Assembly: GCA_043824255.1 (NCBI GenBank)
Contig: JBDRTG010000040.1
Coordinates: forward strand, 1 to 64,000
Length of the DNA stretch: 64,000 bases
Origin: a bacterium
GTDB taxonomy: Bacteria > JAHJDO01
Direction of reading: 5' to 3'
Shown here: piece by piece, positions 5,818 through 27,596 of the stretch
Position numbering within the stretch: position 1 is the first letter of the stretch
Layout: every line of letters begins with the position of its first letter
Position numbers and translations under genes: made by a program
The notes under the pieces: generated by a model
The model's input: the letters and a program-made list of their open reading frames with translations, nothing else
What the model was told of the DNA's origin: nothing
Database searches by the model: none

Positions 5818-5819
5818 AG

Positions 5820-6980: not shown

Positions 6981-7009
6981 AGGGTTGACTAAAAAGGAGA
7001 TAAACTAAC

Positions 7010-9109
7010 ATGAAAAAACTTTCAGTATTTTTACTCATATTTTCAGTAATCTTAACCAGTGTAACTCCTGCCCATAGCTGGCCATGGTCCAGAAATCGTC
7101 GTCCACTTCCGCCAAGAACAGCAACGATTCAAGGACGAGTAACAGATTCAATAACAAATCAAGCCATATCCGGCGCAACAGTCCGGGCAGGCAGTCATAA
7201 AGCTGTTACAAATGCAAATGGAAATTATTCAATAAAGAATATTAAGGTATGGTTCTGGGGAAGGATATATAGAGTAAGAGCCGAAGCAAAAGGATATTAT
7301 ACAAGTTCCAGATGGATATATGTAAGGAAAGGAAGAACATACACATTAAACTTCAGATTGAGACCCAGAAAGCCGCTAATATTAGTCAAGATAGATTCGC
7401 CTGAAGATAATTCCTACATAAAAGGAACAAGCTTAGATGTAATAGTATCATGGCAGGGCAGAGCAGGAATAATAGATTTATATCTGGATAATAATTTAGC
7501 CGGCAGTTACAGGACATGGCGCTGGTGGCACAGGTCAGGAAATCATACATTCAAAGTAGACATTTCAGTTCAACAAGACGGAGAACACAAGCTCAAAGCA
7601 ATAGCATACAGATCGCACAGGAGACGAGGTTACAAAGCAGAATCTAAAGAGATAACATTTATTTTAGATAATAGTTTGCCTGTGATTTCAGACATCTCAC
7701 CAGTAGATAATGCTTTAATTAACAACAACCAGCCGGAGATCTCAACAGTATTGTCGGATGCAACAAGTGGGATTGATAAAGACACAATCATATTAAAAGT
7801 TGATGATGCAGAAGTAACTGCAGGTTATGATGAGGTAACAGGAAAGGTAAGTTACACACCAGAAACAGCGCTTGCTGATGGAACGCATACAATTTTAATA
7901 GAAGTGAAAGACAGGGCAAGAAACGAGGCAAGTGTTACATCAACATTTACAATAGACGCAACATCGCCAGTAATATCAAACATTCTGCCGGAAGATGGTT
8001 CGGAAACGACTGAGACAAGACCGCTAATTTCTGCCAATTATTCAGACTCTGGATCTGGAATAAATGCAACTACAGCAAAAATATTAGTAGGTAATATAAA
8101 CCAAACTTCACATGCTGTAGTCACAGAAACAGGTATTAGTTATAAGCCAGCAGAGGATTTGTTGTATGGCGTCATAGGAGTTCATATAGAGATAAAAGAC
8201 AATGCAGAAAATCTTGCCCAAGTAGATTATGAATTTACAATAAGGGACTATGTCCAGGAACTGGAAGATGGGGTTAGTGAAGGAGATTGGGATAAGATTT
8301 GTGAATCAGCAGATAAGATTATGAAAGAAGGAGGAAAGCTGGTAGATGAATTGATTGAAGCTGCAAAGGATGAAACAAAAGATATCGTGCTAAGATCAAT
8401 GTATTTAGAGATATTAGGAGAAATTGAAGATTCAAAAGCAGTAGACAGTTTAATAAACGTTGTTAAAGATGACTCTGAAGATTCGGAAATTAGAGCAAAT
8501 GCAGCCTACTCATTAGGTAAGATAGGTGATTCGAGGGCAGTTCAACCATTACTAGAAGAACTAGATAATGAGGATACAAACATACGCTCTACTATATCAT
8601 TAGCGCTTGGGTTACTAAACGCGCCTGAGGCTATAGCTCCTCTGCTTGACCAATTAAATAACAGTAAAGATCTTACAGAAAGGATAAGGGCAGGAAGCTC
8701 ATTAGCTAGTATGAAAGCTCAACAGGCGTATGATAGTTTTATAAGCATTTTAACAAGTGATGAAGATGAATCAATAAGACTGCTGTCAGCTTTGTGGTTA
8801 GGAGAACTTGGAGATATTCTAGCAGTTCCATCATTGATAAATGCGTTAAAGGATAAAAGTAGTTGTGTTGCCTGTAATGCAGCAATAGCATTGGGTATAC
8901 TAAAAGATACATCAGCAGTACAACCACTGATAGAAGCATTAGAGGATGAAGGGTTATTAAGAATAGAAGCAGCAGAAGCGCTTGCGGAAATAGGAGACCA
9001 AAGCGCAGCACAAGCAATTGCAGATGTAATAGAAATAGAGAAAGACACATGGGGATTAACGAAACTAAAAGAAGCTTATAAGAAGTTAACAGGCAATGAA
9101 TATGAATAA
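7010..9109 (+). CDS. Secreted protein A1: carboxypeptidase-regulatory-like domain, Ig-like domains, C-terminal HEAT (PBS-lyase-like) repeats
   Basis: Sec signal (TPAHS-W); ATIQGRVTDS...ISGATV...TNANGNYSI; Ig-like DGTHTILIEVKDRARN; HEAT repeats such as IRANAAYSLGKIGDSRAVQPLLEEL; paralog of 20263..22176. Confidence 0.8.
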   Translation: MKKLSVFLLIFSVILTSVTPAHSWPWSRNRRPLPPRTATIQGRVTDSITNQAISGATVRAGSHKAVTNANGNYSIKNIKVWFWGRIYRVRAEAKGYYTSSRWIYVRKGRTYTLNFRLRPRKPLILVKIDSPEDNSYIKGTSLDVIVSWQGRAGIIDLYLDNNLAGSYRTWRWWHRSGNHTFKVDISVQQDGEHKLKAIAYRSHRRRGYKAESKEITFILDNSLPVISDISPVDNALINNNQPEISTVLSDATSGIDKDTIILKVDDAEVTAGYDEVTGKVSYTPETALADGTHTILIEVKDRARNEASVTSTFTIDATSPVISNILPEDGSETTETRPLISANYSDSGSGINATTAKILVGNINQTSHAVVTETGISYKPAEDLLYGVIGVHIEIKDNAENLAQVDYEFTIRDYVQELEDGVSEGDWDKICESADKIMKEGGKLVDELIEAAKDETKDIVLRSMYLEILGEIEDSKAVDSLINVVKDDSEDSEIRANAAYSLGKIGDSRAVQPLLEELDNEDTNIRSTISLALGLLNAPEAIAPLLDQLNNSKDLTERIRAGSSLASMKAQQAYDSFISILTSDEDESIRLLSALWLGELGDILAVPSLINALKDKSSCVACNAAIALGILKDTSAVQPLIEALEDEGLLRIEAAEALAEIGDQSAAQAIADVIEIEKDTWGLTKLKEAYKKLTGNEYE

Positions 9110-10022
9110 TAAGAGCATTTTAAAAGCTTTAATAATTTTTGCAATCGTCTTATCTATTCCATTTTTGGCAGGTTGGAAAAATAGAATAGCGAGAATGGGG
9201 CTAAAGGGTAAAATTGCTTATGAAATACCCGGAATAGATGGAAGTAATAAAATAGGAATATTAAATTTAGAAACTGGAAAGCACAGAAAAATATATGTAG
9301 GAGAATGGGCTATTGATCCAGAAATCTCTCCAGATGGTGGAAAAATAGCGTATGTTGCACTTAGTGGAGGATATTGCTTAAAAATATTCAATATGGAAAG
9401 CAAAACCAAAAAATCATTTGGCGATATGGAAACAGTTCGCTGGCCCAAATGGTCCCCAGATGGTAAAAAAATACTCTACTATTCAAACAGATTGGCGATT
9501 GGTGGCACCGAGGGAACTTATGTAATAAATGTAGAAAGCGGCAAGGAAAAATTTATTGTTGAGTCTGTTTCAGACGCCTTGTGGTCATTTGATGGAGAAA
9601 AAATAATCGCATTCATATCTGGAAAAGGAACTTGTTTTATAGATATACAAAATAAAAAAGTATCGTCTTTTACTAGTCCAAACCTATTGAATAATGCTAT
9701 AGATCCTCGTTTTTCTCCAGATGGCAGTAAAGTTGTATATGAAGCAAATACAAAAGAGAGCTCGTATGAGGATATATTCATTATGGATAAAGACGGAAGT
9801 AATAAGAAAAAATTAACAAATGCTCCATATAAGGAACTAGATATCTTTTTACCGCATTTGTATGGGTGTTCGTACCCTAGATGGACACCTGACGGGAAAA
9901 AAATAATATATTTAAAATCACTGAGGGGAGGTTATTTCCCGCTTTTTTATTCAGCATCGTATTTATATATGATGAATCCGGATGGGACAGATAAGGTAAG
10001 AATAAGAAGATTTTGCTTTTAA
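9096..10022 (+). CDS. TolB-like/PD40 beta-propeller protein B1a
   Basis: N-terminal hydrophobic leader; repeats PEISPDGGKIAY, PKWSPDGKKILY, PRFSPDGSKVVY, PRWTPDGKKIIY. Confidence 0.85.
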   Translation: MNMNNKSILKALIIFAIVLSIPFLAGWKNRIARMGLKGKIAYEIPGIDGSNKIGILNLETGKHRKIYVGEWAIDPEISPDGGKIAYVALSGGYCLKIFNMESKTKKSFGDMETVRWPKWSPDGKKILYYSNRLAIGGTEGTYVINVESGKEKFIVESVSDALWSFDGEKIIAFISGKGTCFIDIQNKKVSSFTSPNLLNNAIDPRFSPDGSKVVYEANTKESSYEDIFIMDKDGSNKKKLTNAPYKELDIFLPHLYGCSYPRWTPDGKKIIYLKSLRGGYFPLFYSASYLYMMNPDGTDKVRIRRFCF

Positions 10023-10037
10023 CATTAAGGAGTCAAG

Positions 10038-11018
10038 ATGAAAAACTGTAACAAATTACAAATTGCAGGAATGATTTTTACAATCATTTTATCTATTCCA
10101 TTTTTGGCAGGCTGGTGTTGGAATAAACCAATAACAAATCCGGAGGTTGCTATAAATGATAAAGATGGCAAAGTATATATTATAGACACTAATAATAGAA
10201 TAAGAAGGGTAAGAATAAAAAACAGAGGATTTGATGTATCGCTTTCTCCTGACGGCACTAAAATTGCATATAATGATTATATTAGGCGCATTAGTGATAC
10301 AGAAGCCATTTACGGATTATGGGTGTGTAATATAGATGGAACAGACCAAAGGTTAATAAGTAACAGAGGAGGGAAAGGGGCTTTGCCTCGCTTAATAGCG
10401 TGGTCTCCAGATAGTAAAAGAATAGCTTTCAAAGCAGATTATGATAAAGGAGGAGGAATATATTTAGTAGAATCTTCAGGTAAAAACGAAAAGTTTTTAA
10501 TGAAGGCAGGATTGCTTGGTTGGGTTGACAATAGAACAGTAGTATGCGGCAAAGATAGAAAGATACTCTTATTGGATGTGATAACCTTAAAAACAAAGGA
10601 CAAAATTGTTCATAAGATATCTAGTGATGAAGAAAGGCTTTCTTATTCTGGAGATAAGATTGTTTATATGGAACATATTGAAAAAATTCGAGAGGGAAGT
10701 CGTTTTTATAGAACTGTTAAGAATATCTATATTTCGGGTATCAATGGGGAAAACAAAAAGCTTTTGGCCAAAGAGAGAATAAGCGAAAAGCCCAAACCTC
10801 AGCTATTTTCTTTTTCAAACTTAAAATGGGGAAGAAGCGGGAAGAAGATTTTTTATAATGCTAAACCATTGGTGCTCAGAGAACAGGGGTATAAATCTGA
10901 TACAAGAGGCTGGCGTTTTACCTCTTTCTATTATTTTTTAATGTGCATAGAGATTGACGATAATAATAACATTACTAATAAAACAAAATTAAAAGAGATT
11001 AGATATACCAGATTCTGA
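10038..11018 (+). CDS. TolB-like/PD40 beta-propeller protein B1b
   Basis: Leader shared with B1a (LSIPFLAGW); SLSPDGTKIAY, AWSPDSKRIAF repeats. Confidence 0.8.
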   Translation: MKNCNKLQIAGMIFTIILSIPFLAGWCWNKPITNPEVAINDKDGKVYIIDTNNRIRRVRIKNRGFDVSLSPDGTKIAYNDYIRRISDTEAIYGLWVCNIDGTDQRLISNRGGKGALPRLIAWSPDSKRIAFKADYDKGGGIYLVESSGKNEKFLMKAGLLGWVDNRTVVCGKDRKILLLDVITLKTKDKIVHKISSDEERLSYSGDKIVYMEHIEKIREGSRFYRTVKNIYISGINGENKKLLAKERISEKPKPQLFSFSNLKWGRSGKKIFYNAKPLVLREQGYKSDTRGWRFTSFYYFLMCIEIDDNNNITNKTKLKEIRYTRF

Positions 11019-11037
11019 AACATGGAGGTATTTTAGA

Positions 11038-13092
11038 ATGATCAGTAAAAGGTTAAAGTTCATCACAGTACTGTTTTTAATTTTTTTAGGTGCTATTTCC
11101 CTTTACGCAGAAGAAACTTCTGCGAAATTTGAAAAGGGAGATGCTATATATAGTGATTTAGGAGAGAATCATATATTAGGTTGGGTAGGACATGCAGGGT
11201 TATATATGTGGTGGGATAAAGCAGAGAAAAATGGTATTGTAAATCCTAAGGAAGCAAAAAATCATGTAGTCTATCAATCTAATCAAGAATCGATTCTCAC
11301 ATTCTTAGGTTTTTCAGTGTCTCCTGGTGTAGAACAAATCACATTCCACGATTTTCGCGAAGATGGCGATTTCTGGGGAGTAAAAACCATAAAACTCTCC
11401 AGTCTTCGGCGTCAACAAATAGTAAATATTGCAAAGAGCAAAAGGGGCTATAAGTATAATTTTTTTAAGGGTTATAAAGGACCGGACACTTTCAGGTGCG
11501 ATGGATTAGTGGAATACTGTTATGAACAAGCTGGAAAAGATATTGTTCCAGGAGATACATGGTCACCGGTTGTTGCCGCTCTTCCGGGCAGAATTTTACT
11601 TACTCCAAAAAAGCAAATGGACTATCTTGCAGATCCTGCGAGATTTGAGCAATATACGCCACAATTTGACCTGATAAAGTTTGGAGAGTTGGAAGATGTA
11701 ATTTGTATTGATGGAGAACCTGTAGAGCCTGATTATGATGGTTATTATCATATTAACAAAAACTGCGCTATAAAAGCGTATGTTTCTGACGGGGAATATG
11801 GCTCAGGAATTGCCAGGTTTGAATTATGGCTTGGAGAGCCTGATGACACTCCTGAAAAACAAGGAGAAGATGATAATACAGGAATACGTCTGGATAAAAA
11901 CAATGACAAACATGAACTTTGCAGTTGGAACAATTTTGATTGGGATATCAGCGATATTAAATCAGGCGATTACAAAGTTTATGCCAAAGTTTTTGATCAG
12001 GCAGGGAATACAAAAGAGACATATATAAATGTCAAAATAGAGGAACCACCCTACTACTTCCACGTCCAACTCTCCCCAGAATATGTAGTAACAGATGGCA
12101 GCGAAGAATCACAAACTCAAGCATTCACAATAACAGTTCAGTGTTACAACTACGGTACATCGGAAACAAAGCCACAGGTAGAGGGTAAAAGATACGTTGA
12201 TAAGAAGGAAGGAACAGAAAGCTGGTGGCACTATATAAATAAAGCACAAAACATTGATGAATGGCGAAAAGAAAAGATCAATCCAGATTGTATAGCTCCG
12301 GAAGAATGGGGAAAGAGTGATTATGCAGGAGAGGTAAGTTTTGGAATAGCCAATATCATAAATAACGCTTATGAGCTATACGCAGGCGGAGAAAAGCTGG
12401 AGACATTGGAGCTGGTAGATGGAGCAGGCTCAATATCAGGAGTAGTAATAAAAGCAGAAGATGGAAATATAGGAGATAATCATCTATTCCTGATTATCTC
12501 CGCATCAGACGGAGCAGGAAGCGGAAATAATGCGTTAATGGTGAATCCGATTTTAGTTGATGTAAATGTTTATGATGATGGGGAGACAAGCCCATTAAAG
12601 AAACTCGGCGGGATGGTTTTTTTTCAAACAGCAGACGAAGCATGGGAGCATGCTGTGAATACTTTTAATATTGGTAATTGGGATTATTCGTGGAGCTACA
12701 GATCGGTACAATTATATGGCTACGTGCATGAGCAATTTCCAGATTCAGGTTGGTACGATTCTGAAATTTGGGCAAGTAAATCAAGGTTAAGGGTTGATTT
12801 AACTGCGTATAATCCCGACGATTATATATCTGCAAATCTAGTTGTAAAACCAAAATTAGACGCTTATGATATTTATTACAATGAGCAAGGCTGGATAGAG
12901 GACAAATACAATTTTCTAAAAAATATAAAATCGGAATTGGGTACTATTTGGATAAGCACAGAGTATTATGCTCCGTCTTATACTCCGTCAAGACCACCGC
13001 TTGGAAAGAAAAAAGGATATTTAGCACAATATTCAGGATCAGGGGGGTATCAGGGATTTTATATTGCTTTAATACCAAAGATGCCGGAATAA
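11038..13092 (+). CDS. Secreted protein D1: permuted papain-like (NlpC/P60, YiiX/YebB-like) domain, Ig-like domain, shared core, variable C-terminal domain
   Basis: Sec signal (SLYA-EE); KGDAIY, GHAGLY then FRCDGLVEYCY (His before Cys); YKVYAKVFDQAGN Ig-like strand; core shared with 24722..27526. Confidence 0.7.
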   Translation: MISKRLKFITVLFLIFLGAISLYAEETSAKFEKGDAIYSDLGENHILGWVGHAGLYMWWDKAEKNGIVNPKEAKNHVVYQSNQESILTFLGFSVSPGVEQITFHDFREDGDFWGVKTIKLSSLRRQQIVNIAKSKRGYKYNFFKGYKGPDTFRCDGLVEYCYEQAGKDIVPGDTWSPVVAALPGRILLTPKKQMDYLADPARFEQYTPQFDLIKFGELEDVICIDGEPVEPDYDGYYHINKNCAIKAYVSDGEYGSGIARFELWLGEPDDTPEKQGEDDNTGIRLDKNNDKHELCSWNNFDWDISDIKSGDYKVYAKVFDQAGNTKETYINVKIEEPPYYFHVQLSPEYVVTDGSEESQTQAFTITVQCYNYGTSETKPQVEGKRYVDKKEGTESWWHYINKAQNIDEWRKEKINPDCIAPEEWGKSDYAGEVSFGIANIINNAYELYAGGEKLETLELVDGAGSISGVVIKAEDGNIGDNHLFLIISASDGAGSGNNALMVNPILVDVNVYDDGETSPLKKLGGMVFFQTADEAWEHAVNTFNIGNWDYSWSYRSVQLYGYVHEQFPDSGWYDSEIWASKSRLRVDLTAYNPDDYISANLVVKPKLDAYDIYYNEQGWIEDKYNFLKNIKSELGTIWISTEYYAPSYTPSRPPLGKKKGYLAQYSGSGGYQGFYIALIPKMPE
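12054..12548 (+). repeat. Shared core segment, copy 1 (homologous to 26389..26844)
   Basis: YFHVQLSP...ITVQCYNYG...YELYAGGEKLETL...ALMVNP in both genes; 53-nt identity 12442..12494 = 26738..26790. Confidence 0.9.
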
Positions 13093-13093
13093 A

Positions 13094-13153
13094 ATGATAA
13101 AAACAAAACCAGAACAAAAAGCATTGAACGAAGTGAAGGGATTGTATGTCTAG
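13094..13153 (+). other. 19-codon mini-ORF MIKTKPEQKALNEVKGLYV overlapping the rplF start
   Basis: ATG at 13094, TAG at 13151-13153; homologous to 27537..27596. Confidence 0.45.
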
Positions 13154-13697
13154 AATAGGGCTCATGCCAGTAGATGTCCCGGATGGTGTTAAGGTGCAAA
13201 TAGATGGAAATCTAATTAAGATTAGCGGATCTAAAGGCGCTCTGGAACATAAATTAGATGCAGAAGTATCTGCAGTTGTAGAGGATAACAAGATTATTGT
13301 AAAGAGGGGTTCAGATGAAAAATCAGCAAGGGCAAAACATGGATTAAATAGAGCTTTAATATCCAATATAGTGATAGGAGTAACTACAGGATTTGAAAAA
13401 ATTCTGGAAATCAAGGGAGTAGGATATAGAGCTCAAGTCCAGGGGCAAAAGCTGCAGATGCAATTGGGATTTTCACATCCAATAGTATATGAGGTTCCGT
13501 CAAATATAGAAATCGAAGTAAGGAAAAATAATCAGATTGTGGTGAAAGGAATTGATAAACAGTTGGTAGGCGAGATAGCTGCCACAATTAGGAATATGAG
13601 AAAGCCAGAGCCATATAAAGGAAAGGGGATTCGCTACTTAGGCGAGTACGTTAAACACAAGGTTGGTAAGACAGCTACAGCTGATGTGCAGGCATAA
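13146..13697 (+). CDS. rplF: 50S ribosomal protein L6
   Basis: MSRIG, GVGYRA, LGFSHP, PEPYKGKGIRY motifs. Confidence 0.99.
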   Translation: MSRIGLMPVDVPDGVKVQIDGNLIKISGSKGALEHKLDAEVSAVVEDNKIIVKRGSDEKSARAKHGLNRALISNIVIGVTTGFEKILEIKGVGYRAQVQGQKLQMQLGFSHPIVYEVPSNIEIEVRKNNQIVVKGIDKQLVGEIAATIRNMRKPEPYKGKGIRYLGEYVKHKVGKTATADVQA

Positions 13698-13709
13698 AGG
13701 ATACTGCTG

Positions 13710-14063
13710 ATGAAATTAAAAGGTAGAGCTAGAAGACATAAGAGAGTAAGAAAAAAAGTTATTGGTACAGCTCAAAGGCCAAGGTTGAGTGTCTTTAGAA
13801 GTTTGAAGCATATATATGTACAATTGCTTGATGATGAGAATAGTAAGACAATACTTTCAGTATCAACTCGTTCAAAAGACTGTAGTGCGGAAATAAAGTA
13901 CGGAGGAAACATACTAGCAGCAAAAGCTGTGGGAAAGATGCTGGGGGAGAGGGCGTTAAATAATAAGATTACAGATGTTGTGTTTGATAGTGGAGGATAT
14001 TTATATCATGGTCGCATAAAGGCTTTAGCAGACGCGGCCAGAGAAGCTGGACTTAAGTTTTAG
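13710..14063 (+). CDS. rplR: 50S ribosomal protein L18
   Basis: [35 protein letters not shown]. Confidence 0.99.
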
Positions 14064-14080
14064 CGTGAGGAGGAACTAGT

Positions 14081-14572
14081 TTGATAGAAAATAGAATAAA
14101 AGAGGCGTCAGAGGAGCAGGAGCTAATCGAGCGGGTTGTGAATGTAAATAGAGTTGGTAAGGTTGTAAAAGGTGGAAGAAAGCTGGGTTTTAGTAGTCTG
14201 GCTGTAGTAGGGGATGGAAATGGAAAAGTAGGATATGGCATAGGTAAGGCAAATGCAGTACCTGAGTCAATAAAAAAGGCTGTCCAATCAGCAAAGAAGA
14301 ATATGATAGATGTTTTAATTGTAGATACAACAATCCCATTTGAAATAATAGGCCATTATGATGCAGCAAGAATTATGTTAAAACCTGCTTCAAAGGGAAC
14401 AGGTGTAATTGCAGGAAGCGCGGTTAGGGCTGTATTAGAAGCGGTTGGTATTCAGAATGCTTTGACAAAATGTTTGGGATCCAATAACCCGATAAATGTT
14501 GTTAGAGCAACAATAGAAGGTTTGAGAAATATATCAGAGGTTTATGAGTTATCAAAGAAAAGGCACAGATAA
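14081..14572 (+). CDS. rpsE: 30S ribosomal protein S5
   Basis: [30 protein letters not shown] motifs; TTG start after AGGAGG. Confidence 0.98.
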
Positions 14573-15013
14573 ATGATATTAGGCAATTTGAAAGTTCCTA
14601 AGGGTGCTAAGAAGAGGAAGAAAATAGTTGGACGCGGCAATGGGTCTGGCCATGGGAAAACTGCTTGTAAGGGGAATAAGGGCCAGAAAGCAAGATCTGG
14701 TGGCAAGATTCGCCGTGGTTTTGAAGGCGGACAAATGCCTCTCTATCGTAGAGTACCAAAAAGAGGATTTACAAGTCGCTCAAGGGGGAAAATAGTAATT
14801 ATAAATATAGAGAAATTAAATTGTTTTAAGGATGGTTCGGTTGTGAATCTTGAGTGTCTTAGGGAAAAAGAGCTGTTAAAGTCTCAGAATGTTTTAGCCA
14901 AAATTTTAGGTATGGGGGAGTTAAAGAAAAAGTTAAACGTAAGAGCGCATAGCTTTAGTAAGAGCGCTATTAAGAAGATTATAGATGCTGGAGGAACTGC
15001 AGAGGTTATATAA
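14573..15013 (+). CDS. rplO: 50S ribosomal protein L15
   Basis: GRGNGSGHGKT, GFEGGQMPLYRRVPKRGF motifs. Confidence 0.99.
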   Translation: MILGNLKVPKGAKKRKKIVGRGNGSGHGKTACKGNKGQKARSGGKIRRGFEGGQMPLYRRVPKRGFTSRSRGKIVIINIEKLNCFKDGSVVNLECLREKELLKSQNVLAKILGMGELKKKLNVRAHSFSKSAIKKIIDAGGTAEVI

Positions 15014-16326: not shown

Positions 16327-16344
16327 AGAGGTAATAAAGGGGAT

Positions 16345-17215: not shown

Positions 17216-17217
17216 TT

Positions 17218-17331: not shown

Positions 17332-17351
17332 AAAGCATAGATAGGAATAGA

Positions 17352-18139: not shown

Positions 18140-18158
18140 TTAGCAGGAGGTTATAAAT

Positions 18159-18785
18159 TTGGGTAGATATATTGGACCAGTTTGTAGATTGTGCAAGAGA
18201 GAGGGAGAAAAGTTGTTTTTGAAAGGCAGAGTTTGCAATACGGAAAAGTGTGTTTTGGAGAAAAGGAACGCTGCTCTAGGTAAGCGCGTTCAGAGAAAAC
18301 GAAAGATGTCAGATTTTGGCTTAAGGTTAAGGGAAAAACAAAAGGCAAAGAGAATATACGGCATTTTAGAGAAGCAGTTCAAAGGATATTATAAAATAGC
18401 TGCTAAGAGTAAGGGTGTAACAGGAGAGATATTGTTGGAGTTATTAGAGAGGCGTTTAGATAATGTTATTTTTCGCTGTGGTTTTGCAACGACTAGAAGA
18501 GAGTCCAGGCAATTGATAAGACATGGTCACTTTCTTGTAACTGGAAGAGTGGTAGATATTCCCTCATATTTAGTGAATCCGAATGAAAAAGTACAGATAA
18601 AAGCGAAAGATAAAGAATGCGATTTTTTTAAAGATATAATTGAGCTAACAAAGGAAAAGGAGATTCCTCCTTGGTTGGAAGTTGATAAGAAAGACCTCAC
18701 AGGGAAAATACTCAGGATTCCATCTCGTGAGGAAATGGGAGTGTCCTTAAAGGAGCAACTGATTGTTGAATTGTATTCAAAATAG
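18159..18785 (+). CDS. rpsD: 30S ribosomal protein S4
   Basis: LREKQKAKRIYG, LERRLDNV, LIVELYSK; TTG start after GGAGG. Confidence 0.99.
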   Translation: MGRYIGPVCRLCKREGEKLFLKGRVCNTEKCVLEKRNAALGKRVQRKRKMSDFGLRLREKQKAKRIYGILEKQFKGYYKIAAKSKGVTGEILLELLERRLDNVIFRCGFATTRRESRQLIRHGHFLVTGRVVDIPSYLVNPNEKVQIKAKDKECDFFKDIIELTKEKEIPPWLEVDKKDLTGKILRIPSREEMGVSLKEQLIVELYSK

Positions 18786-18794
18786 GAGAAGAAT

Positions 18795-19823: not shown

Positions 19824-19827
19824 AAAA

Positions 19828-20181
19828 ATGCGGCATAGAAAAGTGGGTAGAAAATTGGGTCGGACCTCAAGCCATAGGCAAGCTTTATTTATGAATTTAT
19901 TATGTGCTCTGTTTGAGCATGAAAAGATTAAAACAACAGAGGCAAAAGGTAAAGAGATTAAAAGATTAGGTGATAAATTAATCGGTTTAGCAAAAAGAGG
20001 GGATTTGCACGCCATGCGCATAGCAGCAGCTACAATTGTTAACAAAAAAATATTAACAAAGTTATTTAATAAAATCGCTCCTGAGCTTAAGGATAGGCAA
20101 GGGGGATATATACGTTTGATAAAGATAGGTGCACGGCTCGGAGATGCTGCTCCACAGGTTATTGTAGAAATTGTTAAGTAG
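19828..20181 (+). CDS. rplQ: 50S ribosomal protein L17
   Basis: MRHRKVGRKLGRTSSHR, GGYIRLIK, RLGDAAP. Confidence 0.99.
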   Translation: MRHRKVGRKLGRTSSHRQALFMNLLCALFEHEKIKTTEAKGKEIKRLGDKLIGLAKRGDLHAMRIAAATIVNKKILTKLFNKIAPELKDRQGGYIRLIKIGARLGDAAPQVIVEIVK

Positions 20182-20183
20182 TT

Positions 20184-20205
20184 GCTAATGGTGTTCACCA
20201 TTAGC
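20184..20205. terminator. Perfect inverted repeat after rplQ (possible weak terminator or processing hairpin)
   Basis: gctaatggtg-tt-caccattagc; no following U-tract on the + strand. Confidence 0.45.
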
Positions 20206-20262
20206 GAATGGCGACAAAAAGAGATAGCATGCAATTCCAAATTTTCAAGGAGATAAACTAAT

Positions 20263-22176
20263 ATGAAAAAACTTTCAATATTTTTACTCATATTTTCAGT
20301 AATCTTGACCAGTGTAACTCCTGCATATAGTTGGCCATGGTCCAGAAATCGTCGTCCACTTCCACCCAAAACAGCAACGATTCAGGGCAGAGTAACAAAT
20401 TCCATAACAAATCAAGCCATATCTGGTGCAGCAGTCCGGGCAGGCAGTTACAGAGCTACTACAGATGTAAATGGAAATTATGTAGTAAAAAGCATTAAAG
20501 TATGGTTTTGGGGAAGAATATATAGAGTAAAAGCCGAAGCAAAAGGATATTACGCAAGTTCCAGATGGATATATGTAAGGAAAGGAAGAACATACACCCT
20601 GAATTTCGGATTAAGACCCAAAAAGCCGTTAATATTGGTCAAGATAACTTCGCCTGAAGATAATTCCTACATAAAAGGATCAATTTTAGACGTATCAGTA
20701 GCATGGCAAGGCAGAGCGGGAATAATAGATTTATATTTAGATAATAGTTTAGCTGAAAGTTACAGAACATGGCGCTGGTGGCACAGATCAGGGAATCATA
20801 CATTTACAATAGCCCTTTCGGCTCAACAAGATGGAGAGCATAAGCTCAAAGCAATTGTGTACAGATCGCACAGGAGACGAGGCTACAAGGCAGAGTCTAA
20901 AGAAATAACATTTATCTTAGATAACACCCTGCCTGTGATTTCAGATATATCTCCAGAAAACAATGCGTTGATTAACAACAATCAGCCAGAAATCTCAGCG
21001 ATATTAGAAGATGCAACAAGTGGAATAGATAAAGAAACTATCATATTAAAACTTGATGATGCAGAAGTAAGTGCAAGTTATGATGAGACAACAGGAGAGT
21101 TAAGTTATACACCAGTTACAGCTCTTGAAGACGGGACACATGCAATTTCTATTGAGGTAAAGGATAAGGCGGGAAATGAAGCAAACGCAACATCAACATT
21201 TAGAGTGGAAACAGATACGGCGCCGCCAAACATAACTGATTTATCACCAAAGGACGCTTCTGCAATCTACTACACAACTCCAACAATCTCAGCAAAATAT
21301 TCTGATGATAAATCAGGAATAGATAAAAGCACAGTAAAGATATTAGTAAACGCAGTAGATGTAACAGCAGAAAACACAATTACAGATGAAGGCGTTTCGT
21401 ACACTCCTGATGAAGAGCTTACACAAGGCGGAGTAACAGTAAACATAGAGGTAAAGGATAATGCAGGGAATCTAGCGACGAAGGAATTCAGTTTTGAGAT
21501 AAAGATATTGACAGCGGAAGATCTTTTGCAGGCAGTAAAGAATAATCACGATTCAATTACCAGTATGAAGACAGACTATACTGTTGAATCATTGTTAAAT
21601 TCAGAGCCTGTTCTTGAGACACAGTATGTAAGGTGTTTTTATAAAGACCCTTCAAAAACAAAGTTATATACTTATGAAGATTCAAGTATGACATCCAAGC
21701 TAAGCATACTAATAATGGATGATACAAACATATATGACGTAGATCCAAATACAGGAGATATAGACGAAGTAAATACTTTTGAAGCAGAAGGGCTTGGAAT
21801 TGAATTTGAAGCATACGGTGACACAGAGCTGTTCTTTGAATCTCATGACGTAACCTCTGAGACAATAGATGGAATGAACGGGATAGGAGAAATAACAGCA
21901 GTTCCTGAGCATGCCAATGATACCTATTCCAAAATAAAGTTAAAAATAGATTATCCCAAAGAGCTTATCGTAGGAATGTCTTTTTATGACAATGATGATG
22001 AATATATAAGCGGATTTGAGGTGGTTGAAGCTATAGAGATTGATGGTGTCTGGGTTCCCAAAAAGGTAATTGAGACACCTGCGCTAGAGGGGATGCAGGT
22101 TATTCAAACGTACAGTAATATTGAAATAAATGTTGATATTCTTGATGACGCATTTGATCCGGAGAACCAATTATGA
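20263..22176 (+). CDS. Secreted protein A2: carboxypeptidase-regulatory-like domain, Ig-like domains, C-terminal LolA-like (lipoprotein-sorting-type) domain
   Basis: First ~315 aa nearly identical to A1; C-terminus LTAEDLLQAV...KIKLKID...GVWVPKKV...YSNIEINVDILDDAF resembles LolA-fold proteins. Confidence 0.72.
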   Translation: MKKLSIFLLIFSVILTSVTPAYSWPWSRNRRPLPPKTATIQGRVTNSITNQAISGAAVRAGSYRATTDVNGNYVVKSIKVWFWGRIYRVKAEAKGYYASSRWIYVRKGRTYTLNFGLRPKKPLILVKITSPEDNSYIKGSILDVSVAWQGRAGIIDLYLDNSLAESYRTWRWWHRSGNHTFTIALSAQQDGEHKLKAIVYRSHRRRGYKAESKEITFILDNTLPVISDISPENNALINNNQPEISAILEDATSGIDKETIILKLDDAEVSASYDETTGELSYTPVTALEDGTHAISIEVKDKAGNEANATSTFRVETDTAPPNITDLSPKDASAIYYTTPTISAKYSDDKSGIDKSTVKILVNAVDVTAENTITDEGVSYTPDEELTQGGVTVNIEVKDNAGNLATKEFSFEIKILTAEDLLQAVKNNHDSITSMKTDYTVESLLNSEPVLETQYVRCFYKDPSKTKLYTYEDSSMTSKLSILIMDDTNIYDVDPNTGDIDEVNTFEAEGLGIEFEAYGDTELFFESHDVTSETIDGMNGIGEITAVPEHANDTYSKIKLKIDYPKELIVGMSFYDNDDEYISGFEVVEAIEIDGVWVPKKVIETPALEGMQVIQTYSNIEINVDILDDAFDPENQL

Positions 22177-23680
22177 GCTCTGCTCGAAAAAAATTTAGTA
22201 TATTATTATTAATATTCGCAATAGCTTTAAGTGTAACTATTCCCTCTTATGCAAAAAGGCTAAAGGGATGTGATTATGTAAGTTATCATAGTCCCTGTTG
22301 GATGCCTGATTCAAAGCATATTGTATACATAAAACATATAAGTCATCACAAGTATCGCTACGGCTGGATAGCAGCAATAAGCAAGGGAGGAGATTTATGG
22401 GTAGGAAGTGATTGTTATGTCTACAAGATGAATATAGAGACGAGAAAAGAGGAAGTGATAAAGAAATTTATTACAACATACAATCATAAGATAAGTGAGG
22501 AAGGGAAGAAAAAAAGCGATAGGGAAAAGTATTTTGTTGAGGAGAATGGAAAAGCAAAGAGTTTTCCATACAAAATGGAATCTTTTAAGATAGATTGTTC
22601 TAAAGACGGGAAATGGATATGTTTTAATTCAGGGACATTACATCTTTTAAGCGCAGACGGAAAGATATTAAAAAGACTGCCTGTATCTGTTGGCAGTCCC
22701 AAATTTTCTCCGGATGGAAAGAGAATACTCTACGGTGTTTCTAGTGATGTAAGAACATCTGAAGGAGAATATGTGCGCAAGAAACCTGATTTAAGACTGA
22801 TAGATATAGATGGAACAAATGATAGATTATTGGTTGAAAACGCTACAAACGGCATCTGGCATCCGAGCGGGAAGAAGATAGCATATCACAGAGAAAAAGA
22901 TAACTATAGTACTTACATCATGGATTTGGAAACGAAAGAAAAAACGCTTTTAGTAGATAATACAGGCTATCCATCCGATTGGTCTCCTGATGGTAGGTAT
23001 ATAAATTTTATAGGAAGAGTTCTTGACATGGAAGGGAAAAGACTTAAGACGGGCTTTAAAAGTATTCCAAGATTTGGAAAGTTTTCTCCAGATGGGCTTA
23101 AAATGATTGGGGAAAAGTTAGGTATCACTTTCTCTAAAGTTGGCGATGGGGAAGAAACAATATTGCTTAAAGATTATTCAAAGGAATATTAGTAAGGGAG
23201 ATGATGTATGAGAAATAAGAGATTTAATTTTCTAATAATATTATTGGGCATGATGTTTTTGTTCATGTGCTTTTCGGTAGAAGCAGATGAATTATATACA
23301 GGCAAAACGGCTTGGGAAGATAATCCTGACGGCTATCGTCCCAATCCTGTATTATTCCTCCACGGTTTTGCAAAAGGTTCGCCTGAAACGTGGCAAAAGG
23401 TAATAGATAACCTTAGAAGTCATTTTGATTTTTATTATGAGGGAAACAATTATGGTCACAGTTTTGCTGATAAAGTTAGCCCGTATCTAGAATCTATTCA
23501 GTTTTTCGATGAAGCTGACGAGCCAACAGTGGGCAAGAACAACTCAGTGGATACATATAAGGCGGGGGATCATTATGTAGATATACTTTTGAGGAATATA
23601 AATGATCCGGGCGGCGCTGATAAGGTTTATTATTGGCTATATGAACTTGTTCCAGATGGTGTGAATGACAGATTATCTTT
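22140..23680 (+). repeat. Tandem duplication unit, copy 1 (A2 3' end, propeller gene, lipase 5' end)
   Basis: Colinear homology with 23681..25204; boundaries approximate. Confidence 0.8.
22173..23192 (+). CDS. TolB-like/PD40 beta-propeller protein B2a
   Basis: Sec signal (PSYA-KR); SPCWMPDSKHIVY, PKFSPDGKRILY, WSPDGRYI; paralog of 23714..24706. Confidence 0.85.
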   Translation: MSSARKKFSILLLIFAIALSVTIPSYAKRLKGCDYVSYHSPCWMPDSKHIVYIKHISHHKYRYGWIAAISKGGDLWVGSDCYVYKMNIETRKEEVIKKFITTYNHKISEEGKKKSDREKYFVEENGKAKSFPYKMESFKIDCSKDGKWICFNSGTLHLLSADGKILKRLPVSVGSPKFSPDGKRILYGVSSDVRTSEGEYVRKKPDLRLIDIDGTNDRLLVENATNGIWHPSGKKIAYHREKDNYSTYIMDLETKEKTLLVDNTGYPSDWSPDGRYINFIGRVLDMEGKRLKTGFKSIPRFGKFSPDGLKMIGEKLGITFSKVGDGEETILLKDYSKEY

Positions 23681-23717
23681 TCTTGATAATATATTCAATT
23701 TGGAAAACCAGTTATGA
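23208..23717 (+). pseudogene. Truncated chimeric copy of the lipase-like gene N-terminus fused to an A2-like tail
   Basis: Matches ~160 N-terminal aa of 24722..27526 (YRPNPVLFLHGF, GGADKVYYWLYELVP), lacks catalytic Ser, ends LDNIFNLENQL like A2 LDDAFDPENQL. Confidence 0.75.
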
Positions 23718-25204
23718 AAAAGCTTAGTTTATTATTATTTATGCTCACAATATGTTTAGTTGTAACTATACCTGCATATGCAAAAAGGCTAAAGGGATGT
23801 GATTATGTATATTATAAAAGTCCTTGCTGGATGCCAGACAGTAAACATATTCTCTATATAAAAAGCGTAAGCCATCATAAATATCGTTATGGCTGGCTGG
23901 CTGCGGTGAGCAAGAGCGGAGATTTATGGGTGGGCAGTGATACTTATATCTGCAAGATGAATATAGAGACAAGAAAAGAGGAAGTAATCAAAAAATATTT
24001 TTCAAAAGTAGATCGAATAAAGTCTAAATATGAGTATTTTGTTGAGGAGAATGGAAAAGCAAAGAGTTTTCCATACGAGATGGAGTTTCACAAGATAGAT
24101 TGTTCTCGGGATGGGAAGTGGATATGCTTTAATTCAGGGACGTTACACCTTTTAAGCGCAGATGGGAAAACGCTGAAGAAACTACTTGTAAATAGCAGAA
24201 GTCCAAAATTTTCTCCGGACGGCAAGAGAATACTTTATCAGATATATAGGAGAATAGTTATTCCTGAAAATCCGATTCAAAGTAGAGTCCAGAAGATAAG
24301 CGATTTAAGACTGATAGATATAGATGGGACAAATGATCATTTACTGGTAGAAAATGCTGGTCATGGTATCTGGCATCCGGGTGGGGAGAAAATAGGGTTT
24401 TACATAGAAAATACTGATGGTTTTTTCCGGACAATAAATGTTGATGGAACAGATAAAAAAGCTGTATTTGAAACAAATTGTTATCCTTCAGATTGGGCTC
24501 CTAGTGGTAAATATATAAACTTTCTATCAACATTTCTTGACATGGAGGGAAAGAGAGCAAAAACAGAATTTAAAGATGTTCCTACGTATGGTAGATTTTC
24601 CTCAGATGGGACTAAAATGGTTGGGGGTAACTTGGATATAAGTTTCTCTAAAGTTGGAGATGAAAAAGAGACAGTATTGCTTAAAAATTATTCAAAGGAA
24701 TATTAAGTATGGGAGAGAAAGATGCTAAATAAAAAATTCAATTTTTTTGTCATATTCTTATTGAGCGTTACGTTTCTATTTACATGCTTTTCAATAATAG
24801 AAGCTGATGAGTTATACACAGTTACGGATGCCTGGAAAAAGGAAGACGTTTACAGGCCAAATCCAGTTTTATTTCTTCACGGTTTTGCAGCCGGTTCGCC
24901 AGAAACATGGGAAAAAGTAGTAGGTAATCTTAATGTTCATCATTTTGCTTTTTATTATAGGGGAGAGAAGTATGGACACAGTTTCGGAAAAGAAATAACT
25001 CCGTATCTGGAATCTATTCAGTTTTTCAATGAAGCTGACCATCCAGAAGCAGGCAAAAACAATTCGGTGGATACATATAAAGCTGGGGATTATTATGTAG
25101 ATATAGGCTGGAGAAATCCGAATGACTCTGGTGGTGCTGATAAGGTTTATTATTGGCTATATGAACTTGTTCCACCTGGAGTAAATAATAGGTTATCTTA
25201 TCTT
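23681..25204 (+). repeat. Tandem duplication unit, copy 2
   Basis: Colinear homology with 22140..23680; boundaries approximate. Confidence 0.8.
23714..24706 (+). CDS. TolB-like/PD40 beta-propeller protein B2b
   Basis: Shares AKRLKGCDYV, GKWICFNSGTLHLLSADGK, DLRLIDIDGTND and YSKEY end with B2a. Confidence 0.85.
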   Translation: MKKLSLLLFMLTICLVVTIPAYAKRLKGCDYVYYKSPCWMPDSKHILYIKSVSHHKYRYGWLAAVSKSGDLWVGSDTYICKMNIETRKEEVIKKYFSKVDRIKSKYEYFVEENGKAKSFPYEMEFHKIDCSRDGKWICFNSGTLHLLSADGKTLKKLLVNSRSPKFSPDGKRILYQIYRRIVIPENPIQSRVQKISDLRLIDIDGTNDHLLVENAGHGIWHPGGEKIGFYIENTDGFFRTINVDGTDKKAVFETNCYPSDWAPSGKYINFLSTFLDMEGKRAKTEFKDVPTYGRFSSDGTKMVGGNLDISFSKVGDEKETVLLKNYSKEY

Positions 25205-27526
25205 AGTGAAAAGAATTCTACAGGTATAATTCCCACTTATACAATTGGCAGTGAAAAGCCAAAAGTAAACATGATTTGCCACAGTCTGGGAGGGGTATCT
25301 GCAAGACAATTTTTGAAGCAGTATGGTGCTGGTGATGTTGCAAAGCTTATAACAGTAGGCACTCCTCATAAGGGCTCTCCGCTTGCTACAGCGGCGCATG
25401 GTGGAGATGTGGGAACTGAGCTTATAGCTAAGGCAATTGCATCTACATTCTATCTTCCAAGACTATCAAAAATTCTAATTCCAAAGATTGAGGGAGCCTC
25501 ATTATGGCCGCCAAAGATTAAGATAGGCATCAGAAAATCCGCTTTTACTTCCTATGTTTCAGGTATAAATAATACACGCGTTAATCTTCTTGATTTAGCA
25601 GACATTGATATTCAGGGAGACGCAGTAAGAGATTTAATACCAGGATGCGCTTTTCTTACCCAGCTAAATAGTTCTATTCCTGGTGGTCTGAAATATTACT
25701 GCGTTTACGGGCAGTATTCTGCAATTCCATATATTCATATTGGGCTTAATGCGATAGGCGGAGATATGGTGGTTCTTGTAGCCAGCCAGAAAGCCGATGG
25801 AGTGGGAATACCATGGAAGGAAATGAAAAGAATTTATACATATCATTCAAATGAAGGAGCAACTCTAGCAAAAAATGATTGTAAAACTCTTTTAGGATTT
25901 CTTGATGACACGGAGCCAGTCCTTGACTTGGTCAGAGTTTTAGAATCAAAAGACATAAATCTTTCAACGCTTCCTGAAAGACCCGAAGAAGAAGGATGGG
26001 ATTGGGATAATGAAGGTACTGATTGGACGCAACACAAAGTTGGTGAGGATTCGCAGCCTTTTCTACTGGATCTGGATAAATACGGGAGAGCTTATATTGA
26101 AGGCAAGGTAGACAAAGAATATCTCCCTGCAACCACAAAAGTAAATATTAAGGTATATAAGGAAGGAGAGACAACAGTTGTATGGGATAATAGTTCAGAG
26201 GATCATAAACTCAAACCTTATGCAGGCATGCAACCAACGCCTGCAGGGTTTAGGTATGAGGTATTATTTGCAAAGGATAAGGACACTGCTCCAGAGCCGG
26301 GAGTATATGAGATAAAAGTTTTTGTTGAAAATCCGGCAGAGCTAAAATCAGAAGAAAAGACAGTAAAAGTGAGAATAGGAGCAGGACACTACTTCCACGT
26401 CCAGCTTTCTCCGTCATATGTAGGAACTGGTAGCCCTGTATCACAAACTCAAACATTCAGTATAACAGTTCAGTGTTACAACTACGGGGAGGCAACCGAG
26501 ACTCCCGCAGGAACAGTGAACAAGCTTGACGGAACTCAAAGCTGGGTGAAGGACGATACAGGAGTGTGGCAGAAAGAGGAAATAAATCCAAATCAGGATA
26601 TAAAGTCGGCAGAGACAAAAAGTGATTGTGCAGGTGAGGTAAGTTTTGGATTGAATACACAAGGTTATGAATTATATGCAGGTGGAGAGAAGCTGGAGAC
26701 ATTGTGGCTTGTAGATGGGGCAGGCACAATATCAGGGGTAGTAATAAAAGCAGAAGATGGAAATATAGGAGATAATCATCTATTCCTGATCATCTCCGCA
26801 TCAGATGGAACAGGAAACGGAAACGGAGCGTTAATGGTGAATCCATTAACATCCTCGACAATAGACGTTCCTCGGTATGCTCGTAGAGAGATATCCCTAG
26901 GAAGGAAGGTTATTATTGACACGCAAGAAGTGTTTGATAGAGAATGGAACTGTTTAGAAATAGGATGGTATCATGATTGGAGGTACCTAGGCAAAGACAC
27001 GTGTCTTTTGCATGGGGAATCTTGGACGCCAGGATGGCCGGAAAAAGAGTGGGGGGATTATGAACCGGATTATTGGGCAAGTGCAGGTTTTTATGGACTT
27101 CTTTACCGGGTGTACAATAACTTTGTTGATTTGGTCGCGCGTAAGTTTTTCGTTAGATTTAATTTATCAGGGTGGACCCCAGAACAAGTAGAAAAAGCAT
27201 GGATGAGAGTTGTGCTTCTGGATTGGAGGGCCAACCCCGTGTATGTATATGCCGGAAGTCTAAAAAATATAACAACAGGGAAAGTGGGTACCTTGAAACT
27301 TGATGAGGATGTGCCATATGTCTATTTTTATGACATACCAGCATCGGATTTTGGAGATTGTAAAGAGTATAATCTTGGCCCCTCATTAGATTTAAGCAAT
27401 CCGAGTTTGGTAAAACCACAGAATATAGATTGGTCTGAATATCATCAGGAATATAGGAGAGGTTTAGAAACAGCACATGGATATCATGTGGCGCAGATTC
27501 TATTTATTCCAAAAACTGTGGAATAG
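24722..27526 (+). CDS. Secreted protein D2: alpha/beta-hydrolase (PGAP1/lipase-like) domain, Ig-like domain, shared core, variable C-terminal domain
   Basis: Signal peptide; PVLFLHGF, ICHSLGG nucleophile elbow, GTPHKGSPLA, GDMVV, YHS; core shared with D1. Confidence 0.8.
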   Translation: MLNKKFNFFVIFLLSVTFLFTCFSIIEADELYTVTDAWKKEDVYRPNPVLFLHGFAAGSPETWEKVVGNLNVHHFAFYYRGEKYGHSFGKEITPYLESIQFFNEADHPEAGKNNSVDTYKAGDYYVDIGWRNPNDSGGADKVYYWLYELVPPGVNNRLSYLSEKNSTGIIPTYTIGSEKPKVNMICHSLGGVSARQFLKQYGAGDVAKLITVGTPHKGSPLATAAHGGDVGTELIAKAIASTFYLPRLSKILIPKIEGASLWPPKIKIGIRKSAFTSYVSGINNTRVNLLDLADIDIQGDAVRDLIPGCAFLTQLNSSIPGGLKYYCVYGQYSAIPYIHIGLNAIGGDMVVLVASQKADGVGIPWKEMKRIYTYHSNEGATLAKNDCKTLLGFLDDTEPVLDLVRVLESKDINLSTLPERPEEEGWDWDNEGTDWTQHKVGEDSQPFLLDLDKYGRAYIEGKVDKEYLPATTKVNIKVYKEGETTVVWDNSSEDHKLKPYAGMQPTPAGFRYEVLFAKDKDTAPEPGVYEIKVFVENPAELKSEEKTVKVRIGAGHYFHVQLSPSYVGTGSPVSQTQTFSITVQCYNYGEATETPAGTVNKLDGTQSWVKDDTGVWQKEEINPNQDIKSAETKSDCAGEVSFGLNTQGYELYAGGEKLETLWLVDGAGTISGVVIKAEDGNIGDNHLFLIISASDGTGNGNGALMVNPLTSSTIDVPRYARREISLGRKVIIDTQEVFDREWNCLEIGWYHDWRYLGKDTCLLHGESWTPGWPEKEWGDYEPDYWASAGFYGLLYRVYNNFVDLVARKFFVRFNLSGWTPEQVEKAWMRVVLLDWRANPVYVYAGSLKNITTGKVGTLKLDEDVPYVYFYDIPASDFGDCKEYNLGPSLDLSNPSLVKPQNIDWSEYHQEYRRGLETAHGYHVAQILFIPKTVE
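26389..26844 (+). repeat. Shared core segment, copy 2 (homologous to 12054..12548)
   Basis: Protein and nucleotide match to copy 1, including a 53-nt identity. Confidence 0.9.
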
Positions 27527-27536
27527 GATTATTAAA

Positions 27537-27596
27537 ATGATAAAAACCATTACAAAACCAAAACAAAAAGCGTTGAAGGGGATAGATGTCTCTTAA
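27537..27596 (+). other. 19-codon mini-ORF MIKTITKPKQKALKGIDVS overlapping the MNT gene start
   Basis: ATG at 27537, TAA at 27594-27596; homologous to 13094..13153. Confidence 0.45.

Follow-up and report, generated by a model that had tools for sequence, protein, structure and literature searches.

A 64,000-nucleotide (nt) stretch of DNA from a bacterium of the JAHJDO01 lineage (contig JBDRTG010000040.1 of assembly GCA_043824255.1; hereafter the window) carries two multigene cassettes attached to genes of the ribosomal-protein operons. Each cassette encodes an Ig-like protein (A), beta-propellers (B) and a putative hydrolase (D). Comparison among related genomes gives good support to the view that these are lineage-restricted mosaic cassettes, embedded in operons and bordered by the remnant of a toxin–antitoxin (TA) module. 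As a whole, the observations appear to be best explained by shuffled, operon-embedded, Sec-exported hydrolase cassettes aimed at the envelopes of other cells, an explanation that we hold with about even confidence, and for which an effector–immunity function is plausible. The genome under study (G000; 2.0 Mb, 87% complete) contains the window as contig C40. Its relatives are labelled G001–G008 and their loci L0xx. Genes were called as open reading frames (ORFs) with Pfam matches, and NCBIfam was also scanned.

The S10-spc-alpha ribosomal cluster fills the first 20 kb of the window on the + strand, with one interruption and one extension (Table 1). Cassette 1 (A1, B1a, B1b and D1) is wedged between rpsH and rplF, and cassette 2 (A2, B2a, a 169-amino-acid (aa) ORF, B2b and D2) comes after rplQ, with an intact MNT-HEPN pair behind it and then a gene for ETF-alpha and ftsY (Pfam). 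A further cassette (A3, B3 and D3) is located on contig C6 of G000 between rplK and rplA, and the genome thus has three paralogous A-B-D cassettes. The original prediction, made from the window alone, had described two paired cassettes with the gene order A, two B and D, attached to the ribosomal cluster. Both cassettes are real and lie where it placed them, but a third copy exists, the insertions are inside ribosomal-protein operons and not merely beside them, and the shared order is modified in cassette 2 by an extra ORF (C2). The predicted common 5′ boundary, AAGGAGATAAACTA, was identical in cassettes 1 and 2, represents the ribosome-binding region of A, and occurs nowhere else in the genome when up to 5 mismatches of a 27-mer are allowed; the 3′ mini-ORFs were likewise present as predicted. 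Neighboring genes within a cassette overlap or are spaced by 15–19 nt. Promoter-like sites were no commoner than in shuffled sequence, none of the terminator-like sites fell at a cassette border, and a search of the window and three junction loci at Rfam gathering thresholds returned tRNAs only. Every cassette product has a Sec-type N-terminus, as judged by eye from the translations, in agreement with the export signals that had been proposed.

Table 1. Features of the two cassettes and their host genes in the window
Feature	Positions	Strand	Basis or remark
rpsH (ribosomal protein S8), host gene 5′ of cassette 1	6585..6980	+	Pfam Ribosomal_S8, E 4.8e-47
5′ junction of cassette 1: TTGACTAAA scar, then ribosome-binding site block AAGGAGATAAACTAAC	6981..7009	+	sequence
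A1; constant residues 1–414, variable HEAT-repeat C-terminus	7010..9109	+	Pfam
B1a, exported PD40/TolB-like beta-propeller	9096..10022	+	Pfam PD40, E 1.3e-15
B1b, second, divergent PD40 propeller	10038..11018	+	Pfam
D1	11038..13092	+	profiles, alignments, structure model
D1 core, residues 338–504	12049..12549
D1 end domain, type b, tail ..ALIPKMPE	12550..13089
Mini-ORF 1, 19 codons; junction element 13105–13128	13095..13154	+	stop overlaps rplF start (ATGTCTAG)
rplF (L6), host gene 3′ of cassette 1	13146..13697	+	Pfam
rplQ (L17), host gene 5′ of cassette 2	19828..20181	+	Pfam
Ribosome-binding site block AAGGAGATAAACTAAT of A2	20247..20262	+	sequence
A2, same constant N-terminal part, LolA-like C-terminus	20263..22176	+	Pfam LolA_like, E 1e-8
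B2a, exported propeller of type II cassettes	22173..23192	+	Pfam, pairwise comparison
C2, 169-aa ORF, truncated D2 duplicate	23208..23717	+	pairwise comparison
B2b propeller	23714..24706	+	pairwise comparison with B2a
D2	24722..27526	+	Pfam, pairwise comparison, alignment
D2 core	26384..26845
Mini-ORF 2, 19 codons; junction element 27554–27577; overlaps start of next gene	27537..27596	+	sequence
MNT (27586–27915) and HEPN (27912–28292), intact TA pair	27586..28292	+	NTP_transf_2 37.4 bits (cut-off 21), HEPN 76.1 bits (cut-off 22)

Protein A consists of a constant part, comprising a signal peptide, CarboxypepD_reg and Ig-like domains (Pfam), and a variable C-terminal domain, which is a HEAT domain in A1, a LolA-like domain in A2 and an NHL domain in the cassettes designated type III below. 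The N-termini of A1 and A2 share 74% identity over 414 aa and diverge completely thereafter; the shared block therefore exceeds the 315 aa originally proposed. A search of 5.8 billion clusters gave 16 close relatives of the A N-terminus, and these carried HEAT (4), LolA_like (8) or NHL (3) domains or were truncated (1). Beyond them, the search returned generic Ig-domain matches only. In the source annotation, these proteins are named only “Ig-like” or “HEAT repeat domain-containing protein”.

Protein D is composed, in order, of a signal peptide, a variable hydrolase head, an Ig domain, a strongly conserved 165-aa core, a variable beta-sandwich C-terminal domain (CTD) and a short, conserved tail. 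In D1 the head extends to about residue 207 and is followed by the Ig domain (207–337), the core and a type b CTD, while D2 consists of a head, a beta-sandwich, the core and a type a CTD with the tail ..ILFIPKTVE. D1 and D2 matched at 45% over 307 aa and at 63–68% identity over the 165-aa core, in line with the shared core that had been proposed, and only this central block is common to them. The structure model of D1 was confident for the Ig domain, the core (338–504) and the end domain, and its head was modelled at a predicted local distance difference test score (pLDDT) below 50. The core has the fold of a generic Ig-like sandwich (GH2 C-terminal domains, Z 9.6–9.8; intimin/invasin, Z 9.1–9.3), and comparison of its sequence to those in the PDB gave nothing better than E 0.28. 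Folded alone, the CTD reached a pLDDT of 89; it had no Foldseek match at E ≤ 0.001, and its best structural match, a carbohydrate-binding module (VIA Z 5.6), is weak and below the noise level quoted for the tool. A search of the ESM Atlas gave a top score of 0.83, under the 0.9 mark. No described family for the D core, the D end domain or the A N-terminus was found in Pfam and NCBIfam. A palindrome with an 11-bp stem within the D core (codons for GDNHLFLIIS) was considered as an element and was dismissed because its synonymous sites vary among 10 copies.

Three classes of head were distinguished on the D core, and all three appear to belong to classes of envelope-directed hydrolases (NlpC/P60-like, lipase-like and zinc-phospholipase-C-like), in keeping with the envelope-lytic role that had been suggested for D. 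The type I head, represented by D1, resembles a permuted, C92-like NlpC/P60 domain in which H52 (GHAGLY) precedes C154 (FRCDGLVE). Both residues are invariant in the alignment and are present in distant homologues, and we take them to be catalytic by analogy with NlpC/P60. The match of this head to Peptidase_C92 (19.9 bits, E 8e-4) is below the cut-off of 27, and those to NlpC/P60 chains in the PDB gave E values of 0.008–0.2. The type II head, represented by D2, was assigned to PGAP1-like alpha/beta-hydrolase lipases at 27.7 bits, above the Pfam cut-off of 24.3, and has an HSxGG motif (HSLGG in D2), a nucleophile motif of the GxSxG type, with H187, S188, G190 and G191 invariant in 8 sequences. 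The type III head is found in relatives. A profile of 3 sequences matched PDB entry 8cqm, “Phospholipase C”, over 82 residues (E 2.9e-6), and only E 0.1 was obtained against Pfam Zn_dep_PLPC. Its motifs HFYDP and H..LEDMAVPxHVRND are invariant, and their His, Asp and Glu residues are presumably metal ligands, as in zinc-dependent phospholipase C.

The class of the D head agreed with the C-terminal domain of A in all 13 cassettes for which both are known: type I with HEAT in 4 (in one of them with free-standing HEAT proteins), type II with LolA-like in 6, and type III with NHL in 3. Subtypes IIa and IIb also matched. Within these groups the A C-termini are 91–95% and the heads 70–82% identical, and between IIa and IIb the corresponding values are 33–34% and 34–45%. 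Middle genes tracked head class in the 11 of these 13 cassettes that were scored by family scan or BLAST: 2 of the 3 type I cassettes scored had TolB-like propellers, the 5 of type II had a different propeller, and the 3 of type III had a protein of 190–220 aa. The middle genes of L026 and L027 are known only as tblastn matches and do not enter this count. The alternation of constant and variable parts that had been reported from the window is borne out. The original prediction had also proposed profile searches with the A N-terminus and the D core, and these came out in its favor, with three enzyme classes on one core, each with its own partners.

These domain assignments are also compatible with a different function, in which the proteins are surface-displayed or secreted feeding enzymes. 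The stalk of A would present a binder of substrate or product (for example the LolA-like lipid binder) beside D, lipids and wall fragments would be scavenged from the surroundings or a host cell, no killing or immunity would be involved, and the propellers would be periplasmic helpers of folding or export. D indeed follows the plan of polymer hydrolases that are secreted, with an enzyme joined to Ig domains and a beta-sandwich at the end; the best, albeit weak, match of the CTD is a carbohydrate-binding module (Z 5.6), the LolA-like domain is paired with the lipase, nothing immunity-like follows D, and the genomes are small (1.1–2.7 Mb). However, the CTD match is under the noise level of the tool, and the rapid turnover, the pseudogene fragments (C2 and A remnants), the mosaicism and the presence of several heads per genome fit conflict systems better. 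We consider the feeding function possible, though on balance unlikely; the speed at which the cassettes turn over suggests conflict or predation.

Mosaicism was also seen when the core was compared with the rest of D. Five changes of head type are needed on the core tree, against a minimum of 2 and a mean of 5.1 after shuffling, and approximately unbiased (AU) tests rejected one clade per head type (p 0.0026, 0.00013 and 1.9e-16), the groups having been defined from the head domains but after the identity tables had been seen. The AU tests therefore support recombination between head and core, by which the core would have been shuffled against the heads, and back the diversification by recombination that had been proposed. 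The CTD types cut across head types and core types alike. In L026 (contig C19 of G007, 4806–6754, − strand), a D1-like gene is split into ORFs of 148 and 462 aa and is possibly frameshifted; a C-terminus with GLUG motifs replaces the core, and the head thus stands on a different back end.

The D core was found in 6 of the 9 genomes of the genus and in none of 32 other genomes. Among 1.84 billion representative proteins, only 28 matched a profile of the core at E ≤ 1e-3, and for nine of these E was below 1e-30. About 12 distant full-length matches retain the signal peptide, an enzyme head, the Ig domain, the core, the end domain and a hydrophobic tail ending in ..[IV]P[KR]. A metagenome scan added one short locus and one redundant locus. 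Literature searches, at the level of search results, found neither a description of this protein family nor a report of such inserts in ribosomal operons.

Few gene orders in bacteria are as well conserved as that of ribosomal-protein operons, and the placement of the cassettes is very unusual. Brandis (2021, PMC8046335) describes insertions in this operon cluster as typically falling between operons and breaking operon concatenation, whereas the present ones, of 5.7–6.2 kb, separate neighboring genes inside the L11, S10 and spc operons. Every copy of A starts 8–35 nt 3′ of a housekeeping gene and in the same direction. Cassettes were located between S8 and L6 in G000, between L11 and L1 in G000, G008 and G002, after L17 in G000 (with a remnant of A in G008), and between L3 and L4 in G002 (with a 38-codon remnant and an MNT-HEPN pair in G007). 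At further loci the upstream genes are those for IleRS, PPDK, FabF, dut, FTHFS, LptC and pseudopilins. In 6 relatives the S8 stop is followed after 12 nt by the L6 start, and in 4 relatives the L11 and L1 genes are immediate neighbors; the closest relatives, G004 and G007, have no insert at either junction. The L11–L1 junction holds a type IIb cassette in G000 and a type III cassette in G008, and the variable parts have therefore been exchanged at a fixed site. The start codon of rplF is ATG in G000 and G005 and GTG in 6 relatives without an insert, and TTGACTAAA sits 4 nt after the S8 stop in both the G000 insert and the unrelated insert of G005. The latter (L022, 5377–8385) represents the slot of cassette 1 filled with different cargo in a sister species: it consists of a 746-aa glycosidase-type gene (GHL6/GH42M-like) and an intact MNT-HEPN pair, with no A-B-D genes.

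An assembly artefact, in which the repeated A and D blocks joined accessory DNA to ribosomal contigs during assembly or binning, has to be weighed. Many copies of A do lie at contig ends, and all of the genomes are metagenome bins. The same junctions nevertheless recur in assemblies of different species (L11–A in G000, G008 and G002; L3–A in G002 and, as a remnant, in G007; L17–A in G000 and, as a remnant, in G008). Logan contigs from DNA run X1 (possibly the source sample) extend across both S8–A1 (6501–7108) and D1–L6 (12465–19246) at an even depth of about 430, and their breaks are confined to the repeated A N-terminus and D core. The GC content is also even across the window (0.35–0.39). 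We regard an artefact as scarcely credible.

The middle genes departed in part from the prediction. The propellers do differ in cassette 1, in which B1a and B1b are 25% identical, but B2a and B2b are recent tandem duplicates with 64% identity. C2 is 71% identical to residues 1–160 of D2 but without the catalytic serine of HSLGG; a tandem B-D duplication probably left it behind as a pseudogene. B1b is missing from the orthologous cassette of G004. In type III cassettes a protein of 190–220 aa replaces the propeller, and one type I locus (G001) has HEAT proteins only; propellers are therefore not universal partners. A predicted complex of the A2 C-terminus with B2b and the D2 head scored 0.00 in both runs, made without controls, and speaks neither for nor against an interaction. 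B1a was examined as a candidate TolB of the Tol-Pal system and was rejected, because it reached 96.2 bits against NCBIfam TolB (TIGR02800), below the equivalog cut-off of 343, and can be called a PD40 propeller only. This result bears on another explanation, that the cassettes serve growth-coupled remodelling of the cell's own envelope, with turnover of wall and outer membrane scaled to growth through co-expression with ribosomes. The location of the cassettes in growth-rate-regulated operons and the domain vocabulary of envelope maintenance (NlpC/P60, TolB-like and LolA-like) would suit it. The score of B1a, far under the TolB cut-off, would not, and presence, site and type vary among sister species, with G004 and G007 devoid of the S8–L6 and L11–L1 inserts; the fragments and duplications also speak against a core function. 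We therefore rate own-envelope remodelling as highly improbable.

At the 3′ border, the G005 insert at S8–L6 provided a reference, since in it the glycosidase-like gene is followed by an intact MNT-HEPN module, the MNT of which begins MNKMLKTITKPEQKAL. The mini-ORF of the C6 cassette matched this MNT start at 74% over 19 aa and residues 29–52 of HEPN at 75% over 24 aa, and is therefore a deletion remnant of MNT-HEPN. The 3′ mini-ORF, the origin of which had escaped the original prediction, is the decayed start of an MNT gene, fused in mini-ORF 1 to the end of a HEPN-type gene. The pair after cassette 2, in which the genes overlap by 4 nt, and that of the G005 insert are intact MNT-HEPN (type VII) TA modules, whereas most copies here differ from such modules in having shrunk to 19–57 codons. 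The stops of the mini-ORFs overlap the starts of rplF and rplA (ATGA in the latter).

The start segment of the remnant constitutes an A-rich junction element of about 35 nt. Its 24-nt core has 18 occurrences, which are spread over all 9 genomes of the genus, against 0 of 32 others, and a control with the reversed pattern gave one match in all 41 genomes. The element closes all 10 core-bearing cassettes. It also occurs 3′ of ORF6N genes, there in three reading frames, between dnaN and gyrB in two species, and at the cassette-free L11–L1 junction of G001. Because it is read in different frames, it is conserved as DNA or RNA and not as protein. No inverted repeat or attC-type hairpin was detected in or around it in 22 aligned instances, and no exact-pattern match in viral contigs. 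At dnaN–gyrB (L044 of G003 and L049 of G005), accessory genes are present, each set closed by the element; the cargo comprises ORFs of 958 and 305 aa in one species and a HicA/HicB-like pair, ORF6N and MNT in the other.

Integron cassettes are defined by an attC-type imperfect inverted repeat and an IntI/attI platform. Like integron cassettes and attC-only clusters, the modules described here are promoterless, co-directional and dependent on an upstream promoter, and each (A-B-D, ORF6N or the glycosidase-like gene) is followed by one short conserved element. Unlike integrons, no IntI or attI lies beside any locus scanned, the element is A-rich and without an attC-type hairpin, and the sites are scattered in housekeeping operons and form no single array. 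These likenesses allow a wider reading that we judge distinctly unlikely, namely an integron-like, integrase-independent cassette system. In such a system, the element of about 35 nt would close each promoterless module (A-B-D hydrolase sets, ORF6N genes, TA pairs and the glycosidase-like gene), and exchange would take place at junctions inside essential, highly expressed operons, including those between ribosomal-protein genes. The element would serve both as a recombination joint and as a restorer of translation of the downstream essential gene, and the A-B-D sets would be polymorphic envelope toxins of a new class, exported by way of Sec and secretins, in which a carrier protein is fused to the specificity partner.

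Candidates for a mover of the cassettes were considered. The seven PF00589 (tyrosine recombinase) matches in G000 are all on other contigs. An REP-like (repetitive extragenic palindromic) 30-nt imperfect palindrome (..GATTGCTTC..GCAATGAC..) has at least 8 dispersed copies in G000; it was found on contigs C27, C8, C43, C47, C28 and C37 and in L012, L014, L046, L047 and L050, adjoins the junction element in several loci, and has one copy at a distance of about 840 nt from a gene for a Y1 (IS200/RAYT-type) transposase (C8, 18978–19343). The palindrome, the Y1 transposase and the tyrosine recombinase genes were rejected as movers, no tie to the cassettes having been found.

For expression, a metatranscriptome run belonging to the study that yielded the probable source sample was compared with the window, and contigs identical to the window cover 24 of its 30 bins; runs X3–X7, with small shares, and the cassette parts outside this cover carry no weight here. 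One contig of the RNA library is identical to positions 13009–13379, which comprise the end of D1, the mini-ORF and rplF, a weak hint of D1–rplF co-transcription, and only a hint because the contigs are assembled and DNA may have been carried over. For export, seven matches to secretin domains were counted in G000, unusually many such genes for a 2.0-Mb genome, and TssC had no match in G000 (87% complete). Four cassettes of relatives lie 3′ of pseudopilin-type regions, three by an identified gene and one by likeness of the upstream sequence.

A mechanism may be proposed for the preferred explanation, that of exported hydrolase cassettes aimed at other cells. Transcription of the host operon would read through the cassette and provide expression with growth. 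D would be exported, probably via one of the many secretin systems, and would attack lipids and peptidoglycan of other cells, be they prey, a host or competitors. Cognate binders of the head would be found in the matched A C-terminus and in the middle proteins, with a role as inhibitor, chaperone or adaptor, and recombination in the constant blocks would generate new combinations of head, partner, core and CTD. A TA module would formerly have stabilised the insert, and its remnant would now keep the downstream essential gene translationally coupled or act as a recombination joint.

Polymorphic toxins, such as the Tle lipases and Tae amidases of type VI secretion (T6SS), contact-dependent growth inhibition (CDI) systems and Rhs, offer the closest comparison set. 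They have an N-terminal trafficking domain for a dedicated pathway (type V, VI or VII secretion systems, PrsW or similar), a variable toxin at the C-terminus and an immunity gene directly downstream. The cassettes resemble them in their constant blocks with swappable enzyme domains, in having several paralogous loci per genome, lipid- and peptidoglycan-directed enzymes, strictly co-varying neighbors and truncated orphan fragments, and in that alternative enzyme modules appear to have been recombined on a constant scaffold. They differ in having only a Sec signal, with no T5, T6 or T7 trafficking domain in Pfam and NCBIfam scans of A, B and D. In addition, the variable enzyme of D is N-terminal with the constant part after it, the matched genes are upstream, and D is followed by a TA remnant and a housekeeping gene and not by an immunity gene.

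Several points weigh against the preferred explanation. The partner genes stand upstream of D and nothing immunity-like comes after it, unlike in classical effector–immunity pairs. The type I and type III head assignments are below Pfam gathering scores, and none of the loci scanned has a recombinase or transposase beside it. The RNA library, which is from the same study as the probable source sample, may hold DNA, and every genome compared, G000 included, is a metagenome bin. Furthermore, the core is missing from at least two D genes of the type IIa head, in which homology ends at the Ig–core border, and at one locus a core-bearing D occurs without the A N-terminus; the constant parts are therefore not obligatory.

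If the read-through is true, this lineage would have coupled an apparently conflict-type arsenal to ribosome synthesis and would have solved the resulting problem of polarity and translational coupling. The accessory, fast-evolving genes for secreted proteins, found between adjacent ribosomal genes at four junctions in one genus, hint at a new route for the spread and expression of swappable gene sets. A small family is delimited by the A N-terminus together with the core and end domain of D, and it is open to bench work on three heads and their candidate partners; the junction element offers a handle on module movement without a visible recombinase.

Other genes of the window and of relatives are of separate interest. 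In G000, rpoB and rpoC form one ORF of 2620 aa on contig C6 (L004, 9265–17127), a fused beta-beta′ subunit, and a long ORF of this kind also begins in G008 (L016, 10906 onward). The window encodes a 1482-aa ORF (30722–35170) with a Peptidase_M28 domain and a C-terminal FtsX-type permease domain, which is followed by a 663-aa ORF without a family, a second FtsX protein and an ABC ATPase. A GAF-GGDEF cyclase is encoded at 38994–40097. On the − strand at 43586–44719, the ABC ATPase of an Mla-type lipid transport operon (with MlaE and MlaD adjoining) has an N-terminal PilZ domain, which suggests control of lipid trafficking by cyclic di-GMP.

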